From an uncultured Candidatus Rokubacteria bacterium (GTDB lineage Bacteria > Methylomirabilota > Methylomirabilia > Rokubacteriales > DASRDR01): 64,000 nt of DNA. This document shows positions 36,758 through 62,356 of this stretch, in pieces. Position 1 is the stretch's first letter. Each line of letters opens with the position of its first letter. The stretch spans positions 96,001 to 160,000 of the forward strand of contig CAWDVE010000004.1 of the NCBI GenBank assembly GCA_963805625.1, in the 5' to 3' direction. The notes below the pieces were generated by a model. That model did no database searches. It worked only from the letters and a program-made list of their open reading frames with translations, and was not told where the DNA came from. The translations under genes were made by a program, and so were the position numbers.

Positions 36758-36932
36758 CCGTCCCGCCCGTTCGCCTTCGGTCTTCATGATGCGCGACGGG
36801 ATCGGCCGGGCGACCGGCCTGTCGCTGGCGGACCGGGAGCCGCTCGGCCGGCTCCCCGAGCCCTACCCGTCGTTCTTCTGAGCGGAGGGTGAGGAATTGG
36901 AGGCCGGCACGGACGGCCCGATAATGGGAGCC

Positions 36933-39900
36933 ATGGACAGTGTGACCACGATGCCACGCTCCCCCGACCGTCTCGATCTGAGCCTCGACGACCGCTACCT
37001 CCGGGACGAGGGGGCGGTCTACCTCTCCGGCATGCAGGCCCTCGTGCGCCTGGCGATCGACCAGAGTCGGCGCGACCGCCGGGCGGACCTCCGGATCGGG
37101 ACGTTCATCAGCGGCTATCCCGGCTCGCCCCTCGGGGGCTACGACCTTGCCCTGCGCCAGGCGCGCCGGATCCTGACCGAGCACGACATCCGCCACGTGC
37201 CGGGCGCGAACGAGGAGCTCGCCGCGACGGCGCTCTCGGGCACCCAGATGCTCGACCGCTACCCGCACTCCCGCTACGACGGGGTCGTGGGCCTCTGGTA
37301 CGGGAAGGGCCCCGGCGTCGACCGGAGCGGAGACGCTCTCAAGCACGGCAACTTCGCGGGAACCAGCCGGCACGGCGCCGTCGTGGTGCTCTCCGGTGAC
37401 GACCACGAGGCGAAGAGCTCGACCATGCCCTACCAGGACGACTACGCCTTCGTGGGGCACGGCATGCCCATCCTCTACCCGGCCTCGACGGGGGAGTTCC
37501 TCACACTCGGGCTCCACGCGATCGCGCTCTCGCGCTTCTCGGGCTGCTGGGTGGTGATGAAGCTCGTGGGGCAGCTCGCCGACGGCGGCGAGACGGTCCA
37601 CGTGTCGCGCGACGACCCCGGGATCGTGATCCCGGAGCTCCTGATCGACGGCAAGCCCTTCCGGAAGTCGACGGACTTCACGTTCTTTCCCGGGCTGAAC
37701 ATCGAGACGGAGCGCCAGCTCTACTACGAGCGCCACCGGGCCGTGCTGGCCTACGCGCGGGCGAACAGCCTCACCTGGGCCGAGATCGGCGCTCGCGGGG
37801 ACCGCGTGGGCCTGGTGACGGCGGGCAAGTCGTACGCCGATCTCCGTCAGGCCCTCCTCGACCTCGGTCTCGACGAGGCCGCGCTGCGGCGCCTCGGAGT
37901 GCGCCTGCTGAGAGTAGGGCTCATTTACCCGCTCGACGCCGACGCGATGCGCGCTTTTGCGCGGGACCTCGACGAGATCGTGGTGGTCGAGGAGAAGCGC
38001 GGCTTCCTCGAGGGGCAGGTGAAGGAAGCCCTCGCCGGGTTTCCGCGGGGTGTCCGGGTCCTCGGCAAGACAGACGAGACCGGAGCGCCGCTGTTCCCGA
38101 TCCAGGGAGGCATGGACTCCGACGTGGTGGCGGAGCGGCTGGCACCCCGGCTGCTCCGCCTCGCCGAGAGCCAGCCAGACCTGACGGGGCGGATCCGGAG
38201 CCGGCTCGATGCGATCCGGGCGATTCGCGCGCGGCCGCACGAGGCGCACCCGGGCCGGACACCGAACTACTGCTCCGGGTGCCCCCACAACGTCGGCACG
38301 CGGCTTCTGCCGGGCGAGGTGGCGTGGGGTAGCCCCGGGTGCCATTCGTTCGCCTCGATCATCGAGCAGCCCGAGCGGCACATCGTCTCGATGACGCAGC
38401 TCGGTGGCGAGGGGCTGCCGTGGATCGGGCTCGCGCCGTACACCGACCGGCCGCACATCGTGCAGAACGTCGGCGACGGCTCGCTGTTCCACTCGTCGTA
38501 CCTGAACATCCGGTTCTGCGTGGCGGCCGGGGCCAACATCACGTTCAAGATTCTTTACAATGGGTTCGTGGCGAACACAGGTGCCCAAGAGATGGTCGGC
38601 GGGAAGCCCGTGCCCGAGCTGACGCGGATGCTCGAGCTGGAGGGCGTGCGGACGACGGTGGTCCTGACCAAGGATCCCGACGCGTATCGCGGCGTCGAGC
38701 TCGCGGGCAACGCGCGCGTGGAGGTCATCGAGCGACAGGACGCGGTGCTCCAGGAGCTCGCCGCCACGCGGGGCGTCACCGTGCTGATCCACGATGGAAT
38801 CTGCGCCAACGAGCGCCGGCGCCGGCAGAAGCGCGGGCAGCTTCCGGCGTCGAACCGCTTCGTCGTGATCAACGAGGAGGTCTGCGAGGGTTGCGGGCAC
38901 TGCGGGGCGCTGACGAACTGCATGTCGCTCCACCGGGTCGAGACGGAGCTCGGGCCGAAGACCCAGATCCACGCGTCCTCCTGTAACCAGGATCTCTCCT
39001 GTCTCGGCGGGGACTGTCCCTCGTTCGTGACGGTCGAGACGGCGCCCGGGACGGGCTACCGGAAGCCCGCGGCCCCCGTCCTCCCGGCCGACGCCGTCCC
39101 GGAGCCGTCCGACCGCGTCGGGCTCGAGCGGCCCTACCACGTCTACCTCCCCGGGGTCGGGGGGACGGGCGTCATCACGCTGAATGCGCTGCTCAGCTGG
39201 GCGGCGCTGCTCGACGGTCTGCACGTCCTGAGCTACGACCAGACCGGGGCGGCCCAGAAGTGGGGCCCCGTCCTGTCGAGCCTGATCCTCGCCCGGCCGG
39301 AGCACGTGGCGGCCGCGAACAAGGTCGGGCTCGGTCAGGCCGACCTCTACCTGGCGCTCGACCTCCTGGCGGCCGGGACCCGCGTCAACCTCGACCGCTG
39401 CGACCCGGTGCGCACGGTGGCCGTCGTGAACGCGTCGATCCTGCCGAGCGGCGAGATGGTGCGCAACGTGGACTTCACGCCGCCCGTCGACGCGATCCGC
39501 GGCCAGATCGACCGTTTCACGCGGGCCGCCGCCAACGTCGCCGTTGACGCGCGGCGGCTGTCCGAGGGCCTGTTCGACGACTACATGGCGACCAACATGC
39601 TCGTGCTGGGCGTGGCCTACCAGGCCGGGCTCCTGCCGCTCACGGGGGCGGCCGTTGAGCAGGCCGTCCGCCTGAACGGCGTCGCCGTGGACCAGAACCT
39701 CCAGGCCTTCCGCTACGGCCGTCTCTGGGCGGCTGATCCGGACCGGGTCCGTGCGCTCGTCGAGCCTCCGGCGCGGTCATTCGAGTCCGAGCGGGCGGCG
39801 GCGCTCGAGCGGCTCGGCGGGCGCGACGCGAGCGCGTACGTGTCGCTGCTCGACCGCTCTGCGCATCTCGACCCAGCGGCGCGCCGGCTGCTGGCGCTCC

Positions 39901-40490
39901 GCGTCGGCGAGCTGATCGACTACCAGGACGCCCGCTACGCGGCCGCGTACGTGGACTTCGTCCTCGACGTGGCCGCCCGCGAGGCGGCGCGTGCACCCAG
40001 GCGGCACGACGTCACCCACGCCGTGATCCGGAACCTCTACAAGCTCATGGCCTACAAGGACGAGTACGAGGTGGCGCGCCTCCACCTCAAGCCCGCGTTC
40101 GATGCCGGGACGCGCGGGCTCTTCGCCGCGCCGCGCCGGCTCTCCTGGCATTTCCATCCGCCGCTCCTGCGCGCGCTCGGTCTCAAGCGGAAGCTCCGGC
40201 TCGGGCCCTGGTTCCGCTACGTGCTCCGGGCCCTCCGGGCCCTCCGGCGGCTCCGGGGGACGCCGTACGATCCCTTCGGGTACGCGGCGGTGCGGCGGGA
40301 GGAGCGGCGCCTCGTGCCATGGTACCGAGGGCTCGTGGTGAAGGCGCTCGACGCCCCCGGCCCCGACGCGCACGCGGCCGCGATCGAGCTGGCGCGCCTG
40401 CCCGAGTCGATCCGCGGCTACGAGGACATCAAGCTCCGTAGCATCGCCCGCGCCCGCGAGCGGGCAGAACAGCTCGGGGTCAGACTTTGA
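36933..40490 (+). CDS. ior: Indolepyruvate ferredoxin oxidoreductase family protein (fused alpha/beta)
   Basis: FISGYPGSPLGG, NEELAATA, WYGKGPGVDR, YCSGCPHN, VCEGCGHC, GVGGTGV, LMAYKDEYEVARL, IRGYEDIK; last codons GVRL* lie inside the repeat arm. Confidence 0.93.
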   Translation: MDSVTTMPRSPDRLDLSLDDRYLRDEGAVYLSGMQALVRLAIDQSRRDRRADLRIGTFISGYPGSPLGGYDLALRQARRILTEHDIRHVPGANEELAATALSGTQMLDRYPHSRYDGVVGLWYGKGPGVDRSGDALKHGNFAGTSRHGAVVVLSGDDHEAKSSTMPYQDDYAFVGHGMPILYPASTGEFLTLGLHAIALSRFSGCWVVMKLVGQLADGGETVHVSRDDPGIVIPELLIDGKPFRKSTDFTFFPGLNIETERQLYYERHRAVLAYARANSLTWAEIGARGDRVGLVTAGKSYADLRQALLDLGLDEAALRRLGVRLLRVGLIYPLDADAMRAFARDLDEIVVVEEKRGFLEGQVKEALAGFPRGVRVLGKTDETGAPLFPIQGGMDSDVVAERLAPRLLRLAESQPDLTGRIRSRLDAIRAIRARPHEAHPGRTPNYCSGCPHNVGTRLLPGEVAWGSPGCHSFASIIEQPERHIVSMTQLGGEGLPWIGLAPYTDRPHIVQNVGDGSLFHSSYLNIRFCVAAGANITFKILYNGFVANTGAQEMVGGKPVPELTRMLELEGVRTTVVLTKDPDAYRGVELAGNARVEVIERQDAVLQELAATRGVTVLIHDGICANERRRRQKRGQLPASNRFVVINEEVCEGCGHCGALTNCMSLHRVETELGPKTQIHASSCNQDLSCLGGDCPSFVTVETAPGTGYRKPAAPVLPADAVPEPSDRVGLERPYHVYLPGVGGTGVITLNALLSWAALLDGLHVLSYDQTGAAQKWGPVLSSLILARPEHVAAANKVGLGQADLYLALDLLAAGTRVNLDRCDPVRTVAVVNASILPSGEMVRNVDFTPPVDAIRGQIDRFTRAAANVAVDARRLSEGLFDDYMATNMLVLGVAYQAGLLPLTGAAVEQAVRLNGVAVDQNLQAFRYGRLWAADPDRVRALVEPPARSFESERAAALERLGGRDASAYVSLLDRSAHLDPAARRLLALRVGELIDYQDARYAAAYVDFVLDVAAREAARAPRRHDVTHAVIRNLYKLMAYKDEYEVARLHLKPAFDAGTRGLFAAPRRLSWHFHPPLLRALGLKRKLRLGPWFRYVLRALRALRRLRGTPYDPFGYAAVRREERRLVPWYRGLVVKALDAPGPDAHAAAIELARLPESIRGYEDIKLRSIARARERAEQLGVRL

Positions 40491-40895
40491 CTTCTAGACA
40501 CTTGCCGAGGCACTCGGCCGACCAGGCGAGCTTCTCGTCGCGCGCCGGGCGGCGGGTGAGGCGTCCCACCGTCACGCTCAGGCTAGCGGGGTCGCGGCCG
40601 AGGGCCCGGGGGTGTGGCTCCAGTCCGGAGGAGCAGGTGGACGTGGTTCGGCATGAGGCAGTATGCGTGAACGTCAACCTCGTACCGTTCTCGATACAGC
40701 GCCAATCGGTGGAGATAGGCATCGTAGTCGGCTTTGCTGAGGAACGTCGGCTGGCGCTGGTTCCCGCGGGCGATGACGTGATAGAGGAGGCCGGGCGCAA
40801 AGAGCCTGGAGCGGCGAGCCATGCCTAAGAAGCACGGGGCGTGCCGGTCTGGTCCACGGGCTGCTGGCCATGTTTGGAAGTCAAAGTCTAACCCC
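40476..40895 (-). mobile_element. Inverted-repeat-bounded element carrying an internally deleted HUH/Y1 (RAYT-like) transposase
   Basis: Arm A GGGGTCAGACTTTGACTTCTAGACACTT (40476-40503) and inverted arm B CATGTTTGGAAGTCAAAGTCTAACCCC (40869-40895) enclose the transposase remnant. Confidence 0.85.
40480..40822 (-). pseudogene. Y1 (IS200-like/RAYT) transposase remnant: N-terminal HUH part joined out of frame to a C-terminal HTH-like tail
   Basis: MARRSRLFAPGLLYHVIARGNQRQPTF...HAYCLMPNHVHLLLRTGATP, then at about 40610 a second frame RALGRDPASLSVTVGRLTRR...KCLEVKV*; the catalytic Tyr region is missing. Confidence 0.88.
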
Positions 40896-41001
40896 GGTCG
40901 GGGGTGACCGGGGCGAAGAGCCGAGGACGTCGAGCCATCGCCCTCGACCAGAGGCCCGGGACGGGTGCGAGAGCACCCGTCGGGACTGGGACGAGGGTGA
41001 G

Positions 41002-41030
41002 GAAAATGTCGGGAAGTCAAAGTCTGTCCC
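41002..41030 (-). repeat. Third (unpaired) repeat arm C
   Basis: GAAAATGTCGGGAAGTCAAAGTCTGTCCC, reverse complement of the family consensus with few mismatches. Confidence 0.9.
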
Positions 41031-41034
41031 TGGT

Positions 41035-41063
41035 TTGACACTCTGCGTCGAGGGAAGTAGCAT
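41035..41063 (+). promoter_or_regulatory. Near-consensus sigma70 promoter of the TCA operon
   Basis: TTGACA-N17-TAGCAT upstream of aconitase. Confidence 0.7.
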
Positions 41064-41129
41064 GAGGGCGCGGTCGAGAGCGCCTCCTGTCCGGCTGGGC
41101 GGGAGGCGATTACTTTGGGGAGCCCTGCC

Positions 41130-43373
41130 ATGATTGACGCGATTCGCGCCCTCTACGCCTCGATGCCGGAGCGTCTCACCCGGGCCCGCCGCGACTGGAA
41201 CCGCCCCCTCACGTTGAGCGAGAAGATCCTGGTCGCCCACGTCCACGACTGGAATGCCCAGGCCTGGGAGCGGGGCACGGCCACCCTCCGGCTTCGCGTC
41301 GACCGCGTGGCGATGCAGGACGCAACCGGCCAGATGGCACTGCTCCAGTTCATGCAGGCCGACAAGGCCCGGGTCGCCGTTCCCTCGACGGTCCACTGCG
41401 ACCACCTGATCCGCGCGCAGACGGGCGCGTCGGAGGACATGCGCCGGGCGGTGACCGAGAACAACGAGGTCTACGAGTTTCTCCACTCGGCCTCGAAGAA
41501 GTACGGGATCGGCTTCTGGAAGCCGGGCTCGGGGATCATCCACCAGGTGGTCCTGGAGAACTACGCGTTCCCGGGCGGCCTCATGATCGGCGCCGACTCC
41601 CACACCCCGAACGGGGGCGGTCTCGGCATGCTGGCCATCGGCGTCGGGGGAGTTGACTGCGGCGAGGTCATGGCCGGGCTGCCGTGGGAGGTGCTCCACC
41701 CGAAGCTCGTGGGCGTGCATCTCACGGGGAGGCTGTCCGGATGGACGTCGCCCAAGGACGTGATCACGTACCTCTGCGGGTTCCTTACGGTCAAGGGCGG
41801 CACCAACAAGATCGTCGAGTACTTCGGCCCCGGGGCCGCGTCGATCAGCGCGACCGGCAAGGGCACCATCTGCAACATGGGGGCGGAGCTGGGCGCCACC
41901 ACCTCCGTGTTCCCCTTTGATGAGCGGATGGCCGCGTACCTCGAGGCGACGGAGCGGCGCGACGTCGCGCGGCTCGCTGCCCAGAACCACGCGCACCTCG
42001 TCCCCGACCCGGAGGTCCTCCGGAACCCCAAGGACTTCTACGACGAGATCGTCGAGATCGACCTTTCCACGCTCGAGCCCCACATCGTGGGCCCGCACTC
42101 GCCGGATCGGGACCGGCCGGTCTCGAAGCTTGCCGCCGACGTCCGCGCGAACGGCTGGCCGGCCGGCATCAAGGCGGCGCTCATCGGGTCGTGCACCAAC
42201 TCGTCGTACGAGGACATGCGGCGTGCCGCCCACATCGCGATGCAGGGCATCAAGGCGGGGCTCCGGGCGCGGACGCCGTTCCTAATCACGCCCGGCTCCG
42301 AGCGCATTCACCAGACGATCAAGCGCGACGGGATCATGGCCACGTTCGAGCAGATGGGCGGCACGGTGCTCGCCAACGCGTGCGGGCCGTGCATCGGCCA
42401 GTGGAAGCGGTCCGACGTCGGCAAGGACGAGGCGAACACCATCGTCTCGTCGTTCAACCGGAACTTTCCGGGGCGGAACGACGGCAGCCAGGCGACGCTG
42501 TCCTTTCTCAGCAGCCCGGAGATCGTGACCGCCCTCGCCTTTGCGGGCACCCTCGAGTTCGATCCGGTCCACGGGACCCTGACGGCGCCTGACGGGAAGG
42601 CGTTCCGCTTCACGCCGCCCGAGGGCGAGGAGCTACCGCGGGACGGCTTCGCGCGCGGCGAGGAGGGCTACGAGGCGCCCGCCGCGGACGGCGCCGCAGT
42701 CCAGGTCGTCGTGCGGCCGGACAGCGAGCGGCTCCAGCTGCTCCGGCCCTTCCCGCGCTGGGACGGGAAGGACTTCGACCGCCTGCCGATCCTCGTCAAG
42801 ACCAAGGGCAAGACGACGACCGACCACATCTCGCCGGCGGGAGCGTGGCTGCGCTACCGCGGCCACCTCGACAAGATCAGCGACAACATGTTCATCGGCG
42901 CGCTCAACGGGTTCACCGGGGAGACCGGCAAGGGCGTCAACGTGCTGACCAGCGAGGCCGGGGTGCCGCTCACGCGGATCGCGCGCGACTGGAAGGCCAG
43001 GGGCGTGAGCTGGATCGTGGTCGGCGACGAGAACTACGGGGAGGGGTCGAGCCGGGAGCACGCGGCCATGTCCCCCCGCTACCTCGGCGCGAAGATGGTC
43101 CTCGTCAAGAGCTTCGCGCGCATCCACGAGACGAATCTGAAGAAGCAGGGGATCCTGCCCCTGACGTTCGCGAGCCCCAAGGACTACGACCTGTTCGAGC
43201 AGGCGGACAGGGTGAGCGTGGTCGGCCTCCAGGCCCTGGCGCCGGGCCGGCCGGTCGAGGTTCGCATCCGCAAGCCGGATGGCCGTACCATCACGATCCA
43301 GGCCCGCCACAGCCTGACCGAGGAGCACATCGGCTGGTTTCGCGCCGGGTCGGCGCTGAACGCGCTCTCGTAG
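41130..43373 (+). CDS. acnA: Aconitate hydratase (mitochondrial-like type)
   Basis: DRVAMQDATGQ, HCDHLI, GADSHTPNGGG, IGSCTNSSYED, ANACGPCIG, TTDHISPAG, NYGEGSSREHAA. Confidence 0.96.
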   Translation: MIDAIRALYASMPERLTRARRDWNRPLTLSEKILVAHVHDWNAQAWERGTATLRLRVDRVAMQDATGQMALLQFMQADKARVAVPSTVHCDHLIRAQTGASEDMRRAVTENNEVYEFLHSASKKYGIGFWKPGSGIIHQVVLENYAFPGGLMIGADSHTPNGGGLGMLAIGVGGVDCGEVMAGLPWEVLHPKLVGVHLTGRLSGWTSPKDVITYLCGFLTVKGGTNKIVEYFGPGAASISATGKGTICNMGAELGATTSVFPFDERMAAYLEATERRDVARLAAQNHAHLVPDPEVLRNPKDFYDEIVEIDLSTLEPHIVGPHSPDRDRPVSKLAADVRANGWPAGIKAALIGSCTNSSYEDMRRAAHIAMQGIKAGLRARTPFLITPGSERIHQTIKRDGIMATFEQMGGTVLANACGPCIGQWKRSDVGKDEANTIVSSFNRNFPGRNDGSQATLSFLSSPEIVTALAFAGTLEFDPVHGTLTAPDGKAFRFTPPEGEELPRDGFARGEEGYEAPAADGAAVQVVVRPDSERLQLLRPFPRWDGKDFDRLPILVKTKGKTTTDHISPAGAWLRYRGHLDKISDNMFIGALNGFTGETGKGVNVLTSEAGVPLTRIARDWKARGVSWIVVGDENYGEGSSREHAAMSPRYLGAKMVLVKSFARIHETNLKKQGILPLTFASPKDYDLFEQADRVSVVGLQALAPGRPVEVRIRKPDGRTITIQARHSLTEEHIGWFRAGSALNALS

Positions 43374-43452
43374 GCTCGTCCGGGCGACGCCCACCGCGGC
43401 TCGATCGGAGAACCGGATGGTGCGGGCGGCGCCCGTGCCCTGAGGAGGCAGC

Positions 43453-44706
43453 ATGCCAGGTCGCGTGAGAATCCCCACCGGCGAGAAGATCGCCCTCTCC
43501 CACGGAAAGCTGCAGGTTCCCGACCACCCGGTCGTGCCCTTCATCGAGGGTGACGGTACGGGCCCCGACATTTGGCGCGCCTCCGTGCGGGTGCTGGACG
43601 CCGCCGTCGAGCAGGCCTACGGCGGTAAGCGCCGGATCGCCTGGGCCGAGGTGTACGCGGGCGAGAAGGCGCACGCGGTCTACGGCGCGGACTGCCCGCC
43701 GAACCTCCTGCCGTCCGAGACCCTGGACGTGATCCGGGAGTACCTGGTCGCGATCAAGGGGCCGCTCACGACCCCGGTCGGCGAGGGCTTCCGGAGTCTC
43801 AACGTCACGCTCCGCCAGGAGCTCGACCTCTACGTCTGCCTTCGCCCGGTGAAGTACTTCCGGGGCGTGCCGTCGCCGGTCAAGCGGCCGGAATCGGTGG
43901 ACATGGTGATCTTCCGCGAGAACACGGAGGACATCTACGTCGGCGTCGAGTGGCTCACGGGGACGCCCGAGTGCCAGAGGGTCGTCGACTTCCTGACGCG
44001 CGACATGGGCGTGAAGAAGATCCGGTTCCCCAAGACCTCGTCGATCGGGATCAAGCCGGTGTCGATCGAGGGATCGGAGCGGCTCATCCGGGCGGCGATC
44101 CGGTACGCGATCGAGCATAACCGCCGGAACGTGACCCTCGTCCACAAGGGGAACATCCAGAAGTTCACCGAAGGGATGTTCATGAAGTGGGGCTACGGGC
44201 TCGCCAAGCGCGAGTTTCCCGACCGGACCGTGTCCTGGGAGGAGTGCGGCGGGAAGCCGCCGGCGGGCAAGCTCCTGATCAAGGACGCGATCACGGACGC
44301 CTTCCTCCAGCAGATCCTCACGCGGCCCGACGAGTTCGACGTCATCGCGGCGCCCAATCTCACGGGCGACCTCCTGTCGGATGCACTCGCGGCCCAGGTG
44401 GGCGGGATCGGGATCGCGCCGGGCGGGAACATCAACTACGAGACGGGCCACGCCCTCTTCGAGGCGACGCACGGGACCGCGCCGAAGTACGCGGGCCAGG
44501 ACAAGGTGAACCCGGGCTCCGTGATCCTCTCGGGTGAGATGATGCTCCGTTACATGGGCTGGGCCGACGCGGCCGACCGGATCGTCAAGGGCCTGGAGGC
44601 GACGATCGCCCAGAAGGTGGTGACCTACGACTTCGCCCGCCTGATGGACGGGGCGAGGGAGGTCAAGTGCTCCGAGTTCGCCACCGCCATCGTGGAGAAC
44701 ATGCGC

Positions 44707-44721
<15 letters not shown>
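43453..44721 (+). CDS. icd: Isocitrate dehydrogenase (NADP-type dimeric family)
   Basis: [51 protein letters not shown]. Confidence 0.96.
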
Positions 44722-45786
<1,065 letters not shown>

Positions 45787-45797
45787 GAGGGCACGCG

Positions 45798-46643
45798 GTG
45801 GCGGCACCGGGTCATCAGGCGCATGCGACGGGCACGGGAATCACGGCGACCCGCCTCCCGGCGGCGAACGGGCGGATCCGTGTCGAGGGCCCGATCCGCT
45901 GGGACACGTGGTGGGTCGAGCCGGCCCTGATCGTGCTGGTGCTGGGCGCCTTCATCGTCTACTCGACGTGGGCGGCGCTCCAGAACGCCCACTACTACGC
46001 GGCGCCGTACCTCTCGCCCTTCTATTCGCCGTGCCTCTCGACCGACTGCCAGCACGTCACCGTGCCCCTGTTCGGCAAGATGCCGGCGCTCCCGATCCTG
46101 GGGGTCGTCTCACCCGCCTTCCTGATCCTCTGGGCCCCGGGGCTGTTCCGGCTGACCTGCTACTACTACCGCAAGGCCTACTACCGGTCGTTCTGGGCCG
46201 CGCCGCCGGCGTGCGCGGTAAGCGACATCCGCCCGACCTACACGGGGGAGACGCGCTTCCCGCTGATCTTCCAGAACCTCCACCGCTATGCGTTCTACTT
46301 GGCGGTGCTCTTCATCGTGGTCCTGGCCTACGATGCGCTCCTGGCATTCCGGTTCCCGGGCGGGCGAGTCGGGGTCGGTGTGGGGACGCTCGTGATGTGT
46401 CTCAACGTGATCTTGCTCGCTGGCTACACGTTCTCGTGCCACAGCTGTCGTCATCTCTGCGGCGGATCGGTCAACCAGTTCTCGAAGGCGCCGAGCCGCT
46501 ACGCCCTGTGGAAGGTCGTCACCCGCCTGAACGAGCGGCACCCGACCTTCGCGTGGCTTTCGCTGTTCGCCGTCGGACTGACCGACCTCTACATCCGGCT
46601 GGTGTCGATGGGGGTCATCCGGGACCTCCGCATCGTCTTCTGA
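45798..46643 (+). CDS. sdhC: Succinate dehydrogenase membrane anchor, Sdh1 (Rv0249c-like) type
   Basis: YLSPFYSPC, FRLTCYYYRKAYYRSFW, YTGETRFPL, CHSCRHLCGG; GGAGG RBS; precedes sdhAB. Confidence 0.85.
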   Translation: MAAPGHQAHATGTGITATRLPAANGRIRVEGPIRWDTWWVEPALIVLVLGAFIVYSTWAALQNAHYYAAPYLSPFYSPCLSTDCQHVTVPLFGKMPALPILGVVSPAFLILWAPGLFRLTCYYYRKAYYRSFWAAPPACAVSDIRPTYTGETRFPLIFQNLHRYAFYLAVLFIVVLAYDALLAFRFPGGRVGVGVGTLVMCLNVILLAGYTFSCHSCRHLCGGSVNQFSKAPSRYALWKVVTRLNERHPTFAWLSLFAVGLTDLYIRLVSMGVIRDLRIVF

Positions 46644-46668
46644 CCAGGGGACGGGGCAGGGAGCGCGT

Positions 46669-48474
46669 ATGAGCGGGCTGGAGCAGCACGAGGTCCACGA
46701 GTACGACGTCGTCGTGATCGGCGCGGGCGGGGCCGGCCTCCGGGCGGCGATCGAGGCGGTCGCCCAGGGCGCGCGGACGGCCATCATCTGCAAGTCGCTC
46801 CTCGGCAAGGCGCACACGGTCATGGCCGAGGGGGGAATCGCCGCCGCGCTCCGGAACGTGTACCCCGAGGACAGCTGGGAAGTCCATTTCCGCGACACCA
46901 TGCGCGGCGGGAAGATGCTCAACAACTGGCGCATGGCGCAGCTCCACGCCCAGGAGTCGCCGGATCGGGTCCTCGAGCTCGAGCGCTGGGGCGCGCTGTT
47001 CGACCGGACCAAGGACGGGCGCATCCTCCAGCGGGACTTCGGCGGCCACCGCTACGCGCGGCTGGCCCACGTCGGGGACCGGACCGGGCTCGAGATGATC
47101 CGGACGCTCCAGCAGCACGCCGTCCACCTGGGCATCGACGTCTTCATGGAGTGCACCGTCAACCGGCTCCTCAAGGACGGCGACCGGGTGGCCGGCGCGG
47201 TCGCCTACTGGCGCCAGAGCGGGAAATTCGTCGTGTTCAAGGCGCCGGCGGTCGTGCTTGCCACCGGCGGGATCGGCAAGTCGTACGCGATCACGTCGAA
47301 CTCCTGGGAGTACACGGGCGACGGCCACGCGATGGCGCTCCGCGCCGGCGCGGATCTCATCGACATGGAATGCGTCCAGTTCCACCCGACTGGAATGGTC
47401 TGGCCCCCCAGCGTGCGCGGCCTCCTCGTGACGGAAGGCGTGCGGGGCGACGGCGGGACGCTCCGGAACAGCAAGGGCGAACGGTTCATGTTCCGCTACA
47501 TCCCAGATTTCTTCAAGGCGGAGACGGCGGACAACGAGGCCGAGGCCGACCGGTGGTACGAGGACAAGAAGAACCGCCGGACGCCGGACCTCCTGCCGCG
47601 GGATGAGGTCGCCCGGGCGATCAACGCCGAGGTCAAGGGCGGCCGCGGCAGCCCCCACGGCGGCGTGTTCCTGGACATCGCCACGCGCCGCTCGCCCGAC
47701 TACATCCGGCGCCGCCTGCCCTCCATGTACCACCAGTTCAAGGAGCTGGCGGGTGTCGACATCACCAAGGATCCGATGGAGGTCGGTCCGACCTGTCACT
47801 ACGTGATGGGCGGCGTCCGGGTGGATGCCGACACGACCGCGGCCATCGGGCTGGCCGGGCTCTTCGCCGCTGGCGAGGTGGCGGGCGGCATGCATGGCTC
47901 GAACCGCCTGGGCGGCAACTCGCTCTCGGACCTCCTCGTGTTCGGCCGCCGTGCCGGACACTACGCGGCCGAGCACGCCCGCGCCTCCAAGGGGACGCTG
48001 GCCATCGACGCGCGTCAGGTCCAGGCGGCCGTCCAGGAGGTCATGGCGCCGGTCGAGCGCAAGACCGGCGAGAACCCGTACGAGATCCAGAGGGACCTCC
48101 AGCAGCTCATGCACACCCTGGTCGGCATCATCCGGACCGAGTCGGAGCTGAAGGAGGCCCTCGTCCAGATCGGCCGCCTCGAGGAACGGGCCGCCCGGGT
48201 GCGCGTCGAGGGCAGCCTCACCTACAACCCGGGCTGGCACCTGGCCCTCGACCTCCAGAACCTTCTCGCGGTCTCCGGCGCGATTGCCCTGGCGGCGCTC
48301 GAGCGGAAGGAGAGCCGGGGCGGCCACACCCGCGACGACTACCCGAAGCCGGATCCGAAGCTCGCCAAGGTCAATATCGTGGTGCGGATGAAGGACGGGG
48401 AACTCAGCGTGACCCCGGAGCCGCTGCCGGCGATGCCGCCGGAGCTGCAGAAGCTCTTCGAGGAGAAGAAATGA
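46669..48474 (+). CDS. sdhA: Succinate dehydrogenase/fumarate reductase flavoprotein
   Basis: GAGGAGLRAA, KAHTVMAEGG (covalent-FAD His), QFHPTG, TEGVRGDGG, HGSNRLGGNSL, ESRGGH. Confidence 0.96.
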   Translation: MSGLEQHEVHEYDVVVIGAGGAGLRAAIEAVAQGARTAIICKSLLGKAHTVMAEGGIAAALRNVYPEDSWEVHFRDTMRGGKMLNNWRMAQLHAQESPDRVLELERWGALFDRTKDGRILQRDFGGHRYARLAHVGDRTGLEMIRTLQQHAVHLGIDVFMECTVNRLLKDGDRVAGAVAYWRQSGKFVVFKAPAVVLATGGIGKSYAITSNSWEYTGDGHAMALRAGADLIDMECVQFHPTGMVWPPSVRGLLVTEGVRGDGGTLRNSKGERFMFRYIPDFFKAETADNEAEADRWYEDKKNRRTPDLLPRDEVARAINAEVKGGRGSPHGGVFLDIATRRSPDYIRRRLPSMYHQFKELAGVDITKDPMEVGPTCHYVMGGVRVDADTTAAIGLAGLFAAGEVAGGMHGSNRLGGNSLSDLLVFGRRAGHYAAEHARASKGTLAIDARQVQAAVQEVMAPVERKTGENPYEIQRDLQQLMHTLVGIIRTESELKEALVQIGRLEERAARVRVEGSLTYNPGWHLALDLQNLLAVSGAIALAALERKESRGGHTRDDYPKPDPKLAKVNIVVRMKDGELSVTPEPLPAMPPELQKLFEEKK

Positions 48475-49244
48475 AGCGCCAGACGGTCGCCAGCGGGTCG
48501 ACGCGCGAGGTCACGATGCACGTCTTCCGCGGCGACGCGGAGGGCGGAGAGTTCCGCGAGTACCGGGTGCCCCTCGAGGAGGGGATGGTCGTCCTGGACG
48601 TCGTCCACCGGATCCAGGGAAGCCAGGCGAACGACCTCGCGGTCCGCTGGAACTGCAAGGCCGGCAAGTGCGGGTCGTGCAGCGCCGAGGTCAACGGGAA
48701 GCCGCGGCTCATGTGCATGACCCGGATGGAGATCTTTCCCGCGGGCGAGCCCATCACCGTGGCGCCGCTCAAGACGTTCCCCCTGGTCAAAGACCTGGTC
48801 ACCGACGTGTCGTTCAACTACGAGGCGGCGAAGCAGATCCCGGCGTTCCGGCCCCGGCCGCCGGAGCCCGACGGCACCTATCGGATGATGCAGGAAGACA
48901 TCGACCGCGGGCAGGAGTTCCGGAAGTGCATCGAGTGCTTTCTCTGCCAGGACGTCTGTCACGTGATCCGGGACCATGAGGAGAACAAGCCGGGGTTCTT
49001 CGGGCCCCGCTTCTTCGTGCGGCTGGCTGAGCTGGACATGCACCCGCTCGACACCCAGGACCGCCGCGAGCTCGTCCGGGCGCGCGCGGGCATCGGCTTC
49101 TGCAACATCACGAAGTGCTGCACCGAGGTCTGTCCCGAGCACATCAAGATCACGGACAATGCGATCATCCCGCTGAAGGAGCGCGTGGTCGACGACCACT
49201 ACGATCCCGTCATGTGGGTGGTCCGGAAGCTGGGCGGGAAGTAG
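48471..49244 (+). CDS. sdhB: Succinate dehydrogenase/fumarate reductase Fe-S subunit
   Basis: CKAGKCGSC..LMC; CIECFLCQDVC; CNITKCCTEVC. Confidence 0.96.
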   Translation: MKRQTVASGSTREVTMHVFRGDAEGGEFREYRVPLEEGMVVLDVVHRIQGSQANDLAVRWNCKAGKCGSCSAEVNGKPRLMCMTRMEIFPAGEPITVAPLKTFPLVKDLVTDVSFNYEAAKQIPAFRPRPPEPDGTYRMMQEDIDRGQEFRKCIECFLCQDVCHVIRDHEENKPGFFGPRFFVRLAELDMHPLDTQDRRELVRARAGIGFCNITKCCTEVCPEHIKITDNAIIPLKERVVDDHYDPVMWVVRKLGGK

Positions 49245-49282
49245 AGACCTGACCTCGCGGGTCATCGAGCTGCGGCGCCCCC

Positions 49283-50452
49283 ATGAAGATCCACGAGTAC
49301 CAGGCAAAGGCGATCCTGCGGGAGTTCGGCGTCCCCGTGCCCCGGGGCGAGGTCGCGACCACGCCGGCCGAGGCCCGCGCGATTGCCGAACGCCTGGGCG
49401 GCCGCGTCGTGGTGAAGGCCCAGGTCCACGCGGGCGGGCGAGGGAAGGCCGGCGGGGTGAAGCTGGCCGACGACCCGGCCGGGACCGAGGCGGCCGCCCG
49501 GCAGATCCTCGGGATGCGGCTCAAGACGCCCCAGACGCCGCCCGAGGGCATCACGGTCCTGACGATCCTGGTCGAGGAGGCCTCCGCGATCGTCCAGGAG
49601 CTCTACCTGGCGGTCACGCTGGACCGAGGCCGCGGGGCACACGTCGTCATGGCGAGCCAGGCCGGCGGCATGGAGATCGAGGAAGTGGCGGCCGCGCACC
49701 CCGAGCGGATCGTGCGGGAGTGGGCCGATCCAGCGCTCGGGCTCCAGGCGTTCCAGGCCCGCGCGCTCGCCTTCGGTCTCGGCCTCTCGGGCGACCAGTT
49801 CAAGGCCGGCGTCGGGCTGATCCAGGCGCTCTTCCGCGCCTACCTCGCCAAGGACTGCTCCCTGGCCGAGGTCAACCCGCTGGTGGTGACGCGTGACGGC
49901 CGGGTGCTCGCCCTCGACGCCAAGCTCAACTTCGACGACAGCGCGCTCTTCCGGCACCCCGAGGTGATGGCGCTCCGCGACATCAACGAGGAAGACCCGC
50001 TGGACGTCGAGGCGTCGAAGCACGGGCTCAACTACATCAAGCTCGACGGCACGGTGGGCTGCATGGTCAACGGTGCCGGCCTCGCCATGGCGACGATGGA
50101 CATCGTCAAGCTGGCGGGAGGAGAGCCGGCGAACTTCCTCGACGTGGGCGGCGGAGCGTCCCCCGAGCAGATAGAGAGCGCCTTCCGGATCCTCTCGTCC
50201 GATCCGAGCGTCAGAGCCGTCTTCATCAACGTGTTCGGCGGGATCCTCCGCTGCGACCGGCTGGCCGCGGGGCTGATCGCGGCGGTGCAGAAGCTCGACG
50301 TCCGGATGCCCATCGTCGTCCGGATGGAGGGCACGAACGTGGAGCTCGGCCGCAAGATGCTGGCCGAGTCGGGGCTCAACTTCACGAGCGCGGCCGACAT
50401 GGGCGTTGGCGCGGCCAAGGTCGTCGAGCTCGCCCGCGGGGTCAGACTTTGA
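49283..50452 (+). CDS. sucC: Succinyl-CoA synthetase beta subunit
   Basis: MKIHEYQAK, VKAQVHAGGRGKAGGV, EVNPL, GCMVNGAGLAMATMD, ANFLDVGGG. Confidence 0.97.
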   Translation: MKIHEYQAKAILREFGVPVPRGEVATTPAEARAIAERLGGRVVVKAQVHAGGRGKAGGVKLADDPAGTEAAARQILGMRLKTPQTPPEGITVLTILVEEASAIVQELYLAVTLDRGRGAHVVMASQAGGMEIEEVAAAHPERIVREWADPALGLQAFQARALAFGLGLSGDQFKAGVGLIQALFRAYLAKDCSLAEVNPLVVTRDGRVLALDAKLNFDDSALFRHPEVMALRDINEEDPLDVEASKHGLNYIKLDGTVGCMVNGAGLAMATMDIVKLAGGEPANFLDVGGGASPEQIESAFRILSSDPSVRAVFINVFGGILRCDRLAAGLIAAVQKLDVRMPIVVRMEGTNVELGRKMLAESGLNFTSAADMGVGAAKVVELARGVRL

Positions 50453-50521
50453 CTTCCCAACATTTCGTGATCGCTGCGGGCCATGGGGAATCGAAGTGTA
50501 CGGAAGTCAAAGTCTGACCCC
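50438..50521. mobile_element. Non-autonomous inverted-repeat element, 84 bp, between sucC and sucD
   Basis: GGGGTCAGACTTTGACTTCCCAACATTTC (50438-50466), 26-bp spacer, GAAGTGTACGGAAGTCAAAGTCTGACCCC (50493-50521). Confidence 0.88.
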
Positions 50522-51400
50522 ATGAGCATCCTGGTCGATCGGTCGACGCGGGTGGTGGTCCAAGGGATCACCGGACGCGAAGGCACCTTCCACGCCCTCC
50601 GCTGCAAGGAGTACGGCACCCAGGTGGTGGGCGGTGTGACCCCGGGCAAGGGCGGCACGGTCCACGAGGGCTTCCCGGTGTGGAACACCGTCGACGAGGC
50701 CGTGCGCGAGGCGGGCGCCGACTGCGCGCTGATCTTCGTGCCGCCCGCCGCGGCCACCGACGCGATCATGGAAGCCGCGGCCGCGTGCGTGCCGCTGGTC
50801 GTCTGCATCACCGAGGGTATTCCGGTGGGCGACATGGTCCGGGTCAAGGCGTTCCTAGCCAGCCGCGCGACGCGCCTCCTCGGCCCCAACTGCCCCGGGC
50901 TTATCACGCCCGGCCAGGCCAAGATCGGCATCATGCCCGGCCACATCCACCGGGAGGGCGGGGTGGGAGTGGTGTCGCGGAGCGGGACCCTGACCTACGA
51001 GGTGGTCCACCAGCTCACGCAGCGCGGCCTCGGCCAGTCCACCTGCGTGGGGATCGGCGGCGATCCCGTCAACGGCACCAGCTTCGTCGAGGTGCTCCGC
51101 CTCTTCCAAGACGACTCCGGGACCGAGGCGATCATGCTGATCGGCGAGATCGGCGGCACCGCGGAGGAAGAAGCCGCGGCGTTCGTCCGGTCTCACGTGA
51201 CGAAGCCCGTCGTCGGCTTCATCTGTGGCCAGACCGCGCCCCCCGGGCGCCGCATGGGGCACGCCGGCGCGATCATCTCCGGCGGCAAGGGAACGGCTGC
51301 CGAGAAGATGCGCGCGATGGAGGCGGCCGGCATCACGACCGTCAAGAGCCCCGCCGACATGGGCGCCACCGTTGCCCGAGTGGTCGGACGCGGGCGCTGA
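50522..51400 (+). CDS. sucD: Succinyl-CoA synthetase alpha subunit
   Basis: [42 protein letters not shown] (phospho-His). Confidence 0.97.
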
Positions 51401-51429
51401 CCGCTTACTCAGGGGCGAGAGGACAATCG

Positions 51430-51855
51430 ATGGCGCTCGAGCGCACCCTCACCATCATCAAGCCGGACGCGGTTCAGAAGGGCGTGGTCGGACGCGTCGT
51501 CGCCAAGATCGAGGAGGCGGGGCTCCGGATCCTGGCCGCCAAGCTCGTCCACCTGACGCCGGCGCAGGCCGCGGGCTTCTACATCGTTCACAAGGACCGG
51601 CCCTTCTACCGGAGTCTGTCCGAGTTCATGACGTCCGGGCCCTGCATCCCGATGGTCCTCGAGGGTGAGCACGCGATCCAGCGGCTGCGGGACGTGATGG
51701 GGGCAACCGACCCGTCGAAGGCGGCGCCCGGCACCATCCGACGGGAGTTCGCGGCCTCGATCGAGGCCAACGTCATCCACGGGTCGGACTCGCTCCAGTC
51801 GGCGGCGTTCGAGATCCCCTACTTCTTCCCGGCGTTGGAGATCCATGCGCGCTGA
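51430..51855 (+). CDS. ndk: Nucleoside diphosphate kinase
   Basis: [38 protein letters not shown]. Confidence 0.96.
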
Positions 51856-56604: not shown

Positions 56605-58401
56605 ATGGAAGAGCGTGAGCTTCGGCACTGGATTGACCGGGTGAAGGACGGCACCATCACCCGTCGTAATTTCACCCGGATGATGGTCGGGCTCGGCCTG
56701 ACGGCACCCCTGGCGGCTCAGATGCTCGCCGCCGCGGGCGTGGCGCACGCGCAGACGAAGCCCGCCTTCGCGCCGACCAAGCGTGGCGGCGGCGGCAGCG
56801 TCAAGGTGCTGTGGTGGCAGGCTCCGACCCTCCTGAACCCGCACTTCGCGAATGGCACGAAGGACCAGGACGGCTCCCGCATCTTCTACGAGCCCCTCGC
56901 GTCCTTCGACCCCGACGGTAACCTCTTCCCCAACCTGGCGGCCGAGGTGCCGACTGTCCAGAACGGCGGCGTCGCGAAGGACGGCACGTCCGTCACGTGG
57001 AAGCTCAAGCGAAACGTCCAGTGGCACGACGGGAAGCCCTTCACGGCCGACGACGTGGTGTTCAACTGGGAGTACGCGACGGATCCGGCCACCGCGGCCG
57101 TGACGTCCGGCAACTTCCCGAACGTCACGAAGGTCGAGAAGATCGACGCTTCCACGGTCAAGGTCAGCTTCAACCGGCCCCAGCCCTTCCCGTACACCGC
57201 GCTCTGCGGGCCGAACGGGCAGATCATCCCCAAGCACGTCTTCGAGGCGTTCAAGGGCGCCAACTCGCGCGAGGCGCCGGCCAACCTCAAGCCGATCGGC
57301 ACCGGCGCCTACCGGTACGTGGACTTCAAGCCGGGCGACATGGTCCGGGCCGAGCTGAACCCCAACTATCACGTGCCCAACCGGCCGTTCTTCGACATGA
57401 TCGAGCTGAAGGGCGGGGGCGACGCGGCCTCGGCGGCACGGGCGGTCATCCAGACCGGCGAGTACGACTTCGCCTGGAACATGCAGGTCGAGGATGACAT
57501 CCTCAAGCGCCTGGAGCAGGGCGGGAAGGGCCGCGTGAACATCGCTCTGGCCGGCGACATCGAGCACATCCAGCTCAACAACAGCGACCCCTGGACCGAG
57601 GTCGACGGGGAGCGCTCGAGCCTCAAGTCCAAGCACCCGTTCCTGACCGATCCCGCGGTCCGCCAGGCGCTGAACCTCCTGGTCGACCGGGGCTCCGTGC
57701 AGGAGCAGCTCTACGGCCGCCAGGGACAGGCGACCGCCAACTTCCTGAACGCGCCGTCCAAGTTCAGCTCCAAGAACAACAAGTGGGAGCTGAACCCCGA
57801 CAAGGCCAACCAGATCCTCGAGGCCGCGGGCTGGAAGAAGGGGCCGGACGGCATCCGCGCCAAAGACGGCAAGAAGCTGAAGATGGTCTACCAGACCTCC
57901 ATCAACGCGGTTCGCCAGAAGACCCAGGCGATCGTCAAGCAGGCTGCGGCCAAGGCAGGCATCGAGATCGAGATCAAGTCGGTGGTGGCGTCCGTGTTCT
58001 TCGCCTCCGATCCGGCGAACTGGGACACGTATCCCCACTTCGCGACCGACCTCCAGATGTACACGACCACGATGACCCATCCCGACCCTCAGCGGCTCAT
58101 GGACCAGTTCACCTCCTGGGAAGTGGCGTCCAAGGAGAACAAGTGGCTGGGGCGCAACCCTACCCGGTGGCGCAACGAGGAGTACGACAAGCTCTGGAAG
58201 GCGGCCGACTCGGAGATGGATCCCGTCAAGCGCGCGGCCATGTTCGTCCGGATGAACGATCTCTTGATCCAGAACGTGGTCGTGATTCCGGTCATCTGGC
58301 GCGCGAATGTTAGCGCCATATCACACAAGCTGAGAGATGCTGACATCAGCGCGTGGGATTCGAACCTCGCGACGCTGGCGTTCTGGCACCGCGAAGCGTA
58401 G
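56605..58401 (+). CDS. Peptide/nickel ABC substrate-binding protein (family 5), copy 1, Tat signal
   Basis: TRRNF twin-arginine motif; WHDGKPFTADDV, GTGAY, DPAVRQAL; ends WHREA*. Confidence 0.93.
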   Translation: MEERELRHWIDRVKDGTITRRNFTRMMVGLGLTAPLAAQMLAAAGVAHAQTKPAFAPTKRGGGGSVKVLWWQAPTLLNPHFANGTKDQDGSRIFYEPLASFDPDGNLFPNLAAEVPTVQNGGVAKDGTSVTWKLKRNVQWHDGKPFTADDVVFNWEYATDPATAAVTSGNFPNVTKVEKIDASTVKVSFNRPQPFPYTALCGPNGQIIPKHVFEAFKGANSREAPANLKPIGTGAYRYVDFKPGDMVRAELNPNYHVPNRPFFDMIELKGGGDAASAARAVIQTGEYDFAWNMQVEDDILKRLEQGGKGRVNIALAGDIEHIQLNNSDPWTEVDGERSSLKSKHPFLTDPAVRQALNLLVDRGSVQEQLYGRQGQATANFLNAPSKFSSKNNKWELNPDKANQILEAAGWKKGPDGIRAKDGKKLKMVYQTSINAVRQKTQAIVKQAAAKAGIEIEIKSVVASVFFASDPANWDTYPHFATDLQMYTTTMTHPDPQRLMDQFTSWEVASKENKWLGRNPTRWRNEEYDKLWKAADSEMDPVKRAAMFVRMNDLLIQNVVVIPVIWRANVSAISHKLRDADISAWDSNLATLAFWHREA

Positions 58402-58415
58402 TTCGGCTCGGGGGA

Positions 58416-58442
58416 TTGGCCTCGCCGGAGCGGCGGGGCCAA
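58416..58442 (+). terminator. Strong hairpin after SBP1 (terminator or stability element; no U-tract)
   Basis: TTGGCCTCGCCG-GAG-CGGCGGGGCCAA, 12-bp stem with one G-U pair. Confidence 0.45.
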
Positions 58443-58575
58443 GCCTCCGGGGCATCGAGATGAAAGGGCTGTCTCAGTCGGACGAGGGTGGGACGCCCGG
58501 TTCCCCGGCGGGCCAGCCGGCGCCGCCCCTCCGCCTGATTCGCGTCCGAGCCGCAACGCCACCGGAGGGAGAGCC

Positions 58576-60378
58576 ATGGATGAGCGTGAACGTGAGCTGA
58601 GGCAGTGGATCGCGCGGGTCAAGAACGGCACGGTCACCCGCCGTGAGTTCACCCGGATGATGGTCGCGGCCGGGCTGACGGCGCCGATGGCGGCCCAGAT
58701 GCTGTCGGCATCGGGCGTGGCTCACGCCCAGCAGAAGCCGGCGTTCAATCCCACCAAGCGTGGGGGCGGCGGACCGGTCAAGACCCTGTGGTGGCAGGCC
58801 CCGGTGCTCTTGAACCCCCACCTCTCCCCGGGGACGAAGGACGTCGACGCCTCGCGCATCTTCTACGAGCCCCTCTGCTCGTTCGATCCCGACGGGAACC
58901 TCCTCCCGGTCCTGGCGACCGAGGTGCCCACGGTCCAGAACGGCGGGATCTCGAAGGACGGTATGTCGGTGACCTGGAAGCTGAAGAAGAACGTCGTCTG
59001 GCACGATGGGAAGCCGTTCACGGCGGACGACGTGGTTGCGACCTGGGAGTGGGCGGCCGACCCGGCCTCGGCGGCCGTGACCTCGGGGGGGTACAAGGAC
59101 ATCGCCCGGATCGACAAGCTGGACAGTCACACCGCCAAGATCACCTTCACGCGGCCGGCGCCGTTTCCCTTCGAGCCGTTCTGCGGCCCCAACGGGCAGG
59201 TCCTGCCGAAGCACGTCTTCGAGCCGTTCAAGGGAGCGAAGTCCCGCGAGGCGCCGGCCAACCTCAAGCCCGTGGGGACCGGGCCATACCGGATCGTCGA
59301 CTTCAAGCCCGGGGACTCCGTCAAGGCCGAGCTCAACCCGACCTATCACGTGCCGAATCGGCCGTTCTTCGACACGCTGGAGATGAAGGGCGGCGGGGAT
59401 GCCGCCTCCGCGGCGCGCGCGGTCATCCAGACCGGCGAGTACGACTACGCCTGGAACATGCAGGTCGAGGACGACATCCTGCTTCGCCTGGAGCAAGGTG
59501 GTCGCGGCAAGGTCGAGATCGTCTACGGCGGCAACATCGAGTTCATCGGGGTCAACTTCTCCGACCCCTGGACCGAGGTGGACGGGGAATGGTCCAGCCC
59601 GAAGTCGAAGCACCCCCTCTTCACCGACCCCGCCGTGCGCCAGGCCGTGAACCTCCTGGTCGACCGGTCGGCGGTCCAGGAGCAGATCTACGGCCGCCAG
59701 GGCCGGACGAGCGCCAACTTCCTGAACGCCCCCTCCAAGGTCCGCTCGGCCAACACGAAGTGGGAGTTCAGCGTCGACAAGGCCAACGCGCTGCTCGAGC
59801 AGGCCGGGTGGAAGCGGGGGGCCGACGGCATCCGCGCCAAGGACGGCAAGCGCCTCAAGATCGTGTACCAGACGTCCACCAACGCTCCCCGCCAGAAGAA
59901 CCAGGCCATCGTCAAGCAGGCCGCGGCCAAGGCCGGGATCGACGTCGAGATCAAGGCGGTCGTCGCGTCGGTCTTCTTCGGGTCCGACCCGGCGAACTGG
60001 GACACGTTCCCGCACTTCAAGGCCGACATCCAGATGTACACGACTACCATGGTGCACCCCGACCCGCAGCGGTTCATGAACCAGTTCCTCACCGAGGAGA
60101 TCGCGTCGAAGGCCAACAAGTGGTCGGGCCGCAACCCGACGCGCTGGGGCAACGAGGAGTACGACCGGACGTACAAGGCTTCCGAGAGCGAGATGGATCC
60201 CGTCAAGCGCGCGGCCATGTTCATCAAGATGAACGATCTCCTGATCCAGAACGTCGTCGTGATCCCGGTGCTCTGGCGGGCCCGCGTGGCGGCCGTCTCC
60301 AACAAGCTCCGAAACACCGAGCAGAGCCCGTGGGAGTCCGACTTCTGGAACCACGCCAACTGGTACCGCGAGGCGTAG
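58576..60378 (+). CDS. Peptide ABC substrate-binding protein, copy 2, Tat signal
   Basis: TRREF; collinear paralogue of copy 1; ends WYREA*. Confidence 0.93.
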   Translation: MDERERELRQWIARVKNGTVTRREFTRMMVAAGLTAPMAAQMLSASGVAHAQQKPAFNPTKRGGGGPVKTLWWQAPVLLNPHLSPGTKDVDASRIFYEPLCSFDPDGNLLPVLATEVPTVQNGGISKDGMSVTWKLKKNVVWHDGKPFTADDVVATWEWAADPASAAVTSGGYKDIARIDKLDSHTAKITFTRPAPFPFEPFCGPNGQVLPKHVFEPFKGAKSREAPANLKPVGTGPYRIVDFKPGDSVKAELNPTYHVPNRPFFDTLEMKGGGDAASAARAVIQTGEYDYAWNMQVEDDILLRLEQGGRGKVEIVYGGNIEFIGVNFSDPWTEVDGEWSSPKSKHPLFTDPAVRQAVNLLVDRSAVQEQIYGRQGRTSANFLNAPSKVRSANTKWEFSVDKANALLEQAGWKRGADGIRAKDGKRLKIVYQTSTNAPRQKNQAIVKQAAAKAGIDVEIKAVVASVFFGSDPANWDTFPHFKADIQMYTTTMVHPDPQRFMNQFLTEEIASKANKWSGRNPTRWGNEEYDRTYKASESEMDPVKRAAMFIKMNDLLIQNVVVIPVLWRARVAAVSNKLRNTEQSPWESDFWNHANWYREA

Positions 60379-60542
60379 AGCTGGCGCCCTGGCCGCGGCC
60401 TGCCTTCCCCGGACCCGGGGTGGGAGCGTCGGCGCGCCTGGTCGGTGGCGAAGCCACGCCCGGCAGACCGGCCGGTGTGCCGGGGCCGAGCCTCGCCGGG
60501 TGTTCACTCGCATCGGGATCGACAGAGCAGGGAGGATAACCC

Positions 60543-62345: not shown

Positions 62346-62356
62346 CCGGAGGGACG

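Follow-up and report, generated by a model that had tools for sequence, protein, structure and literature searches.

We analysed a window of 64,000 nucleotides from an uncultured Candidatus Rokubacteria bacterium (contig CAWDVE010000004.1, positions 96,001 to 160,000; source genome G000, 7.27 Mb in 28 contigs), in which a 29-base repeat, here called an arm, ends three genes. A first-pass annotation, made from the letters alone, had noticed seven copies of this repeat; all are present, with 0-5 mismatches to the 29-mer. The gene ior, for a fused indolepyruvate:ferredoxin oxidoreductase (36924..40490, forward strand, start codon called by model), takes its last four codons and TGA (GVRL-stop) from arm 1 (40476..40504, forward, 4 mismatches). 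Arm 2 (40867..40895, 5 mismatches) and arm 3 (41003..41031, 3 mismatches) follow on the reverse strand. Farther on, icd (43453..44721, forward) ends GVKL-stop on the left arm of a 138-bp inverted pair between icd and mdh (44707..44844; arms 44707-44735 forward, 1 mismatch, and 44816-44844 reverse, 0 mismatches), the right end of which lies 12 nt before the mdh ATG at 44857. Likewise, sucC (49283..50452, forward) ends GVRL-stop on the left arm of an 84-bp pair (50438..50521; arms 50438-50466 forward, 1 mismatch, and 50493-50521 reverse, 3 mismatches), and the sucD ATG stands immediately after it, at 50522. Five of the seven arms come within 3 mismatches of the 29-mer, and 100 shuffles gave no such match. 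As the annotation had read them, all three genes enter the arm in codon phase 0 (...EQLGVRL-stop, ...NMRGVKL-stop and ...LARGVRL-stop), with arm bases 13-15 as the stop; the identities it gave, IOR, Icd and SucC, are confirmed by Pfam and NCBIfam. The GVRL and GVKL tails lie outside the Pfam domains.

Arms 1 to 3 are terminal inverted repeats (TIRs) of a TIRtron whose transposase gene is broken: arm 1 is the downstream TIR, arm 2 the inner upstream TIR, and arm 3 the outer upstream TIR, at the same position as the upstream TIR of relatives. An N-terminal piece of the gene (40583..40822, reverse, 79 aa) corresponds to residues 1-70 of an intact orthologue, including the HUH motif, at 79% identity; a C-terminal piece (40480..40608, reverse) corresponds to residues 269-310 at 60% identity and is out of frame with the first. 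About 198 codons are deleted, among them the Tyr of a YIHLNP motif, presumably the catalytic residue. While arm 1 stops ior on the forward strand, on the reverse strand it encodes EVKV-stop, the native C-terminus of intact orthologues. This peptide had been taken to terminate the remnant; the translatable 79-residue remnant instead stops at a TAG at 40583-40585, in a different frame. There is no intact transposase elsewhere in G000, and the whole genome has one PF01797 match.

The same gene is better preserved in relatives. A Y1 transposase was found in 8 of 14 same-genus genomes, in all eight between ior and aconitase, bounded by arms and with its last residues encoded by one, which bears out the proposed assignment of the repeat to an HUH/Y1 transposase. 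Across the species tree, which was built from one operon, two types of protein and arm occur intermingled. Intact orthologues have 292-324 aa, and 2 further copies are frameshifted. PF01797 (Y1_Tnp) scores above its cut-off in 4 intact proteins, NF047646 gives 79 and 81 bits in 2 (cut-off 80), and a C-terminal helix-turn-helix (HTH) of the Bac_DnaA_C type appears in all three proteins scanned, at E values from 6e-4 to 0.013 that are all below the curated cut-off. The genes are flanked on both sides by GGGGTCAG ends, one side being AGGGTCAG in two cases, and these ends fit the GGGG[AT][CG]A[CG] pattern of TIRtron TIRs. The arm profile itself starts GGGGTCAG, with nothing conserved ahead of that start and no GTAG or GTGG tetranucleotide at the arm foot. 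Because the Y1 core, the weak C-terminal HTH and the GGGGTCAG ends match the descriptions of Di Nocera et al. (2013, PMC3733652) and Quentin et al. (2018, PMC6006769), we assign the HUH/Y1 gene of the window, by its sequence, to TIRYT and to a predicted TnpA-Y1 subclass 2.1-like group. The transposase is broken in G000, and the arm family has therefore probably stopped spreading there.

Copies of the arm motif were found in 11 of the 14 genomes of the genus versus 3 of 26 others; the protein scan for wider distribution amounted to 2 loci. At least 23 sequencing runs matched, 3 of them with half or more of the words searched. Three same-genus genomes (G004, G007 and G011) have at most one arm match each and no Y1_Tnp match. 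Another, G005, has two distinct TIRYT genes (L070, L081), each with its own arm type, that both lie between ior and aconitase but on separate contigs, reflecting either a mixed assembly or two systems. Related Y1 genes in other families of the order (L074 in G030, L078 in G039, L077 in G024) have a different, GGGGTCAGGTCTTG-type TIR, which in G030 and G039 overlaps the transposase 3' end. Also in other families, a different repeat, forming GGGGG...CCCCCTCCGAG hairpins, occupies the same junctions: sucC-sucD (L031/L032), icd-mdh (L063) and behind the peptide deformylase gene def (L150).

To place the arms relative to genes, we called them at a profile score of at least 14, with the reversed sequence as control, and called genes with a codon model built for the analysis. 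G000 has 81 arms and its reversed sequence none. Most form inward-facing pairs of 68-150 bp; when a span of up to 260 bp is allowed there are 32 inward pairings, in some cases nested. None of the 81 lies deep inside a called gene. A gene stop falls on arm base 15 at 14 arms, against 0.04 expected, and 3 more genes end on arms scoring below the threshold. Proteins ending GV[RK]L number 13, where 0.42 would be expected; 11 of these end on an above-threshold arm, and chance was rejected as the origin of such ends. EVKV-stop as a donated tail of host genes was rejected: EVK[VA] ends none of the called G000 proteins, and a single EVQV-stop end occurs in G009. In G003, where the transposase is intact, 48 loci were examined (106 matches, 100 of them listed). 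Among the 97 G003 arms are 15 donors, 5 other run-ins, 26 arms within 8 nt of a native stop, 9 adjacent to a start codon and 8 unclear. Genes running into arms used the stop frame in 14 of 15 cases in G000, the single exception reading through the GSDFDF frame, and in 15 of 20 in G003, where some of the five others are perhaps gene miscalls. Among the remaining 3'-flanking arms, a native stop lies no more than 8 nt away in 18 of 20 (G000) and 26 of 29 (G003), with 5.7% expected by chance. The expectation that copies are non-random relative to gene ends and frames thus holds in both genomes. The base preceding the arm is C or T in 26 of 29 donors, compared with 53% at third codon positions.

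Two side observations concern gene boundaries on arms. Several called genes begin at an ATG or TTG within a reverse arm (position 26), and arms may therefore donate N-termini too. At C10:974695-974817 in G000 (L247), an arm with a one-base deletion puts a stop in an otherwise open frame, giving a gene end ...GGQT-stop.

Comparison of empty, filled and scarred sites leads us to conclude that junctions are replaced, reused and eroded rather than cleanly inserted into. Arm-free orthologues of icd, sucC and ior were examined and none ends in GV[RK]L, in line with a repeat-derived tail. Where no arm separates sucC from sucD, a 4-base stop/start overlap is present at 10 of 17 loci with a measured gap, and the sucC tails are short and variable. 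At icd, outgroups end MRRL, MKKL or MAKL and the closest relatives KIGR or KVGR; the latter ends were considered as decayed arms and rejected, being weakly arm-like, with 1-12% of ordinary gene ends scoring equally. Four of ten transposase-bearing ior loci end GVRL-stop, with the arm at three different codons. An arm replaced 12 native codons at C19:584402 and 2 at C10:1846919. The native tail survives in G014 at C10:1114749, where a decayed arm begins 5 nt past the stop; in G000 and G010 an arm is joined at an upstream Gly codon. A new arm lies inside an older one at C18:93000. At C19:612570 in G000 a deletion scar with a partial arm restores an ATGA overlap, and G010 sucC probably carries the same kind of scar, with the overlap likewise restored. 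Separately, from C10:1846993 onward in G000 (L128), the downstream gene lacks N-terminal codons present in G004, G009 and G011, and an arm abuts its coding sequence.

Where does the donated stop come from? A single arm folds with TCA (bases 5-7) paired to TGA (bases 13-15), and 62 of 73 arms have both triplets; the TGA of the reverse strand is this conserved TCA. Type-A arms strongly conserve the TGA at 13-15. In a second type (type B), which has a 5' extension and a REP-like (repetitive extragenic palindromic) hairpin fold and was found in 11 of 14 same-genus genomes, 8 of 23 arms have CGA where the stop would be. Because the TGA pairs with the conserved TCA, the donated stop is likely a by-product of hairpin pairing.

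Starting from the observed link of repeat and transposase, the bias of position and frame, the replacement of 2-12 native codons and the reuse of junctions, we think it rather probable that the arms are TIRs belonging to an HUH tyrosine transposase of TIRYT type and are dispersed as boundary-hugging inward pairs, and that GVRL-stop tails arise by joining within genes with the stop frame kept. In such events the outer end of an arm would have joined a few codons inside a gene. The joining would be carried out by TIRYT, through single-strand cleavage and strand transfer to a pyrimidine-G junction; for E. coli TnpA-REP, strand transfer requires a 3' C, a pilot result given with data not shown (PMC8266576). 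It would often take place at or beside an older arm, with some loss of local DNA. Selection would then filter the outcomes, only the frame with an immediate stop being preferentially retained.

Several observations weigh against this account. Plain insertion ahead of an ATGA overlap would yield the GSDFDF frame, and deletion must therefore be invoked. At 6 of 10 transposase-bearing loci, ior reads through the arm in a stop-less frame, as does a CoxL-like gene in G001 and G005; because read-through frames are common at these genes, the selection filter must be leaky. G009, G012 and G013 have arms and no Y1_Tnp match, and the action of a subclass 2.1 protein on such arms is a predicted role. Donor counts rest on our gene calls, and p-values overstate significance, as the genomes are related. 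In 40 loci chosen among the listed G005 and G012 matches and recounted by hand, the GVR frame was entered by 0 of 8 stop-less versus 8 of 32 stop-bearing arms (p 0.17, not significant); the counts fit survivorship better than an adaptation for repair, with the contrast short of significance.

Such an adaptation is what the first-pass annotation had proposed: the element would target the last codons of genes and repair the interrupted gene with a built-in stop, and so colonise operons. The stop-frame preference of run-ins in both genomes and the strong conservation of TGA in type-A arms speak for it, and the donors at C19:584402 and C10:1083110 replaced native tails with no intermediate seen. 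However, arms 0-8 nt behind an intact native stop outnumber donors (18 versus 14 in G000, 26 versus 15 in G003), hairpin pairing accounts for the TGA, and the stop-less read-through at ior persists. Moreover, arms that lack the stop, such as the type-B arms with CGA, still sit at gene ends, seven of eight stop-less arms adjoining one in G005 and G012 lying within 15 nt of a native stop. The claim of built-in repair is overstated, and we regard this explanation as quite unlikely. A different possibility, which we entertain without favouring it, is that the host selects the pairs as mRNA 3'-end hairpins acting in stability or termination, so that proximity to stops would reflect selection, not targeting. 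Consistent with this, the genes on either side are co-oriented or convergent for 26 of 27 pairs and divergent for 1, divergent junctions making up 12% genome-wide; the 28 pairs examined all have folding energies between -17 and -45 kcal/mol (DNA parameters, unshuffled sequences only), and the transposase seems to be present as one copy at a constant locus. Yet G004, G007 and G011 live without intact arms, and a host function adds to the account by TIRYT joining while leaving the formation of junctions unexplained.

The DNA between paired arms was compared as well. Spacers are unique: the highest score among shuffles was 24, and 3 of 378 spacer pairs surpass it (50, 29 and 25), the top pair being tandem neighbours. 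MITE-like copying of whole units (as in miniature inverted-repeat transposable elements) was rejected, the spacers being unrelated. A further candidate reading, that spacers are displaced native DNA, has one clear case, at L086 in G013, with the native tail behind the left arm, but G003 spacers were matched at just 1 of 17 empty G000 sites, and at 2 of 14 even where both genomes are filled. The L086 arm pair (L086:894-2370) encloses 1.4 kb that G000 lacks; its left arm lies 7 codons inside a gene, and the native tail of this gene is displaced into the element, with reading in the GSDFDF frame.

Pristine arms standing in register beside decayed orthologues suggest renewal in place, in which the transposase, or gene conversion between copies, would bring long-occupied sites back to the present arm consensus, the spacer being inherited and the donated tail re-stamped in register. 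Of 31 colinear G003 sites, 14 are also filled in G000; the spacers there are unrelated, yet the arms often begin at an identical nucleotide. The def arms are pristine in G000 and G006, six lineages have a right arm with one decay in common, and they share the end of the spacer. The arm at C10:1544624 is perfect in G000 and decayed, in the same register, in the sister G013, and departures from the consensus tend to be shared between both arms of an element (29 versus 17.3, p 0.001). On the other side, G003 and G014, which are not sisters, share a near-identical icd-mdh allele, and interspecies exchange of alleles can mimic renewal; the tree is based on a single operon; and the supposed decayed icd arms are, as noted above, weakly arm-like. 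We hold renewal tentatively, as doubtful rather than likely.

One donated tail looks, from its sequence, to be under selection. In all 10 same-genus genomes in which def was recovered, it ends GVRL (7), GVRF, GMRL or AFRL, as compared with AFAL or ATAL in five genomes of other genera. Relative to the arm consensus the tail shows 24 silent and 5 replacement changes, where the opportunity was 11:25, in rows that are not independent, and behind the def stop 29 of 50 non-coding positions differ from the consensus.

The basic phenomenon, and largely the mechanism, are already known. The annotation had held stop donation to be undescribed; in fact REP termini often supply a stop codon and TIRYT genes are listed whose 3' ends overlap a TIR (PMC3733652), and other repeats remove a stop and add C-terminal residues (Delihas 2007, PMC2759123; PMC3184786). 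With GTAG REP stops (TAG) and these ERIC and RU fusions, our arms share the supply or removal of a stop and the addition of residues beyond the conserved domain, one of the published cases being a 4-residue extension; unlike them, they give 14 or more proteins in a genome one and the same four-residue tail and stop, and the def tail is conserved as a peptide across the genus. TIRtron/TIRYT systems, as described for TnpA-Y1 subclass 2.1 (PMC3733652; PMC6006769), have in common with ours a Y1 transposase with a C-terminal HTH extension (Bac_DnaA_C, HTH_23 or HTH_28), flanking TIRs starting GGGGWSAS, overlap of a TIR with the gene 3' end, and moderately abundant TIR families in dimers. In contrast, the gene here keeps one fixed chromosomal locus genus-wide, with ~15-100 arms per genome; multi-codon TIR tails on host genes are undescribed in the main-text parts of those two papers; and type-B arms form REP-like hairpins, none of which Quentin et al. 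found near their subclass 2.1. REPIN-RAYT systems of groups 2 and 3 (Bertels and Rainey; 10.1101/2021.07.10.451892, PMC5581495, PMC3337134), which are subclasses 2.2 and 2.5 (PMC8266576) and the groups to which Bertels and Rainey limit REPIN association, resemble ours in their inverted doublets of ~100 bp, unique spacers (PMC3337134) and decay once the transposase is lost, and have a single-copy transposase at a fixed locus, as ours seem to; they differ in that our arms have no GTAG tag and our protein has the subclass 2.1 C-terminal HTH. We found no biochemistry of subclass 2.1/TIRYT proteins in a literature search of openly accessible article text, and Rokubacteria are unmentioned among the literature matches listed. 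What is new here is the scale, the genus-wide comparison, the def tail, and a REPIN-like family whose associated protein is subclass-2.1-like.

Elsewhere in the window, 41130-51855 is a tricarboxylic acid cycle operon of aconitase, icd, mdh, a gene without a Pfam match, sdhA, sdhB, sucC and sucD, followed by a gene that we take to be ndk. Four tandem paralogues of ~600 aa each, 73-85% alike in DNA, occupy 56605-64000, starting with an extracellular solute-binding protein of family 5.

For the questions of how and why REP and REPIN repeats spread, this genus offers a natural experiment: at a single locus the transposase may be intact, broken or lost, the arms are of two types, and many sites can be compared in the filled, empty or scarred state. 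It bears on how repeats reshape protein C-termini and on the exaptation of a repeat-derived tail. More speculatively, and with greater doubt than attaches to renewal alone, a domesticated subclass-2.1 transposase might act as an editor of gene junctions, re-stamping arms at old sites, joining outward and using up neighbouring DNA as far as stops, ribosome-binding sites and starts, and writing GVRL on at least a dozen proteins in each genome, some of which, such as that of def, would be fixed by selection. If this is true, it would represent a third REPIN-forming RAYT lineage and provide a testable model for the spread of REPINs with unique spacers.

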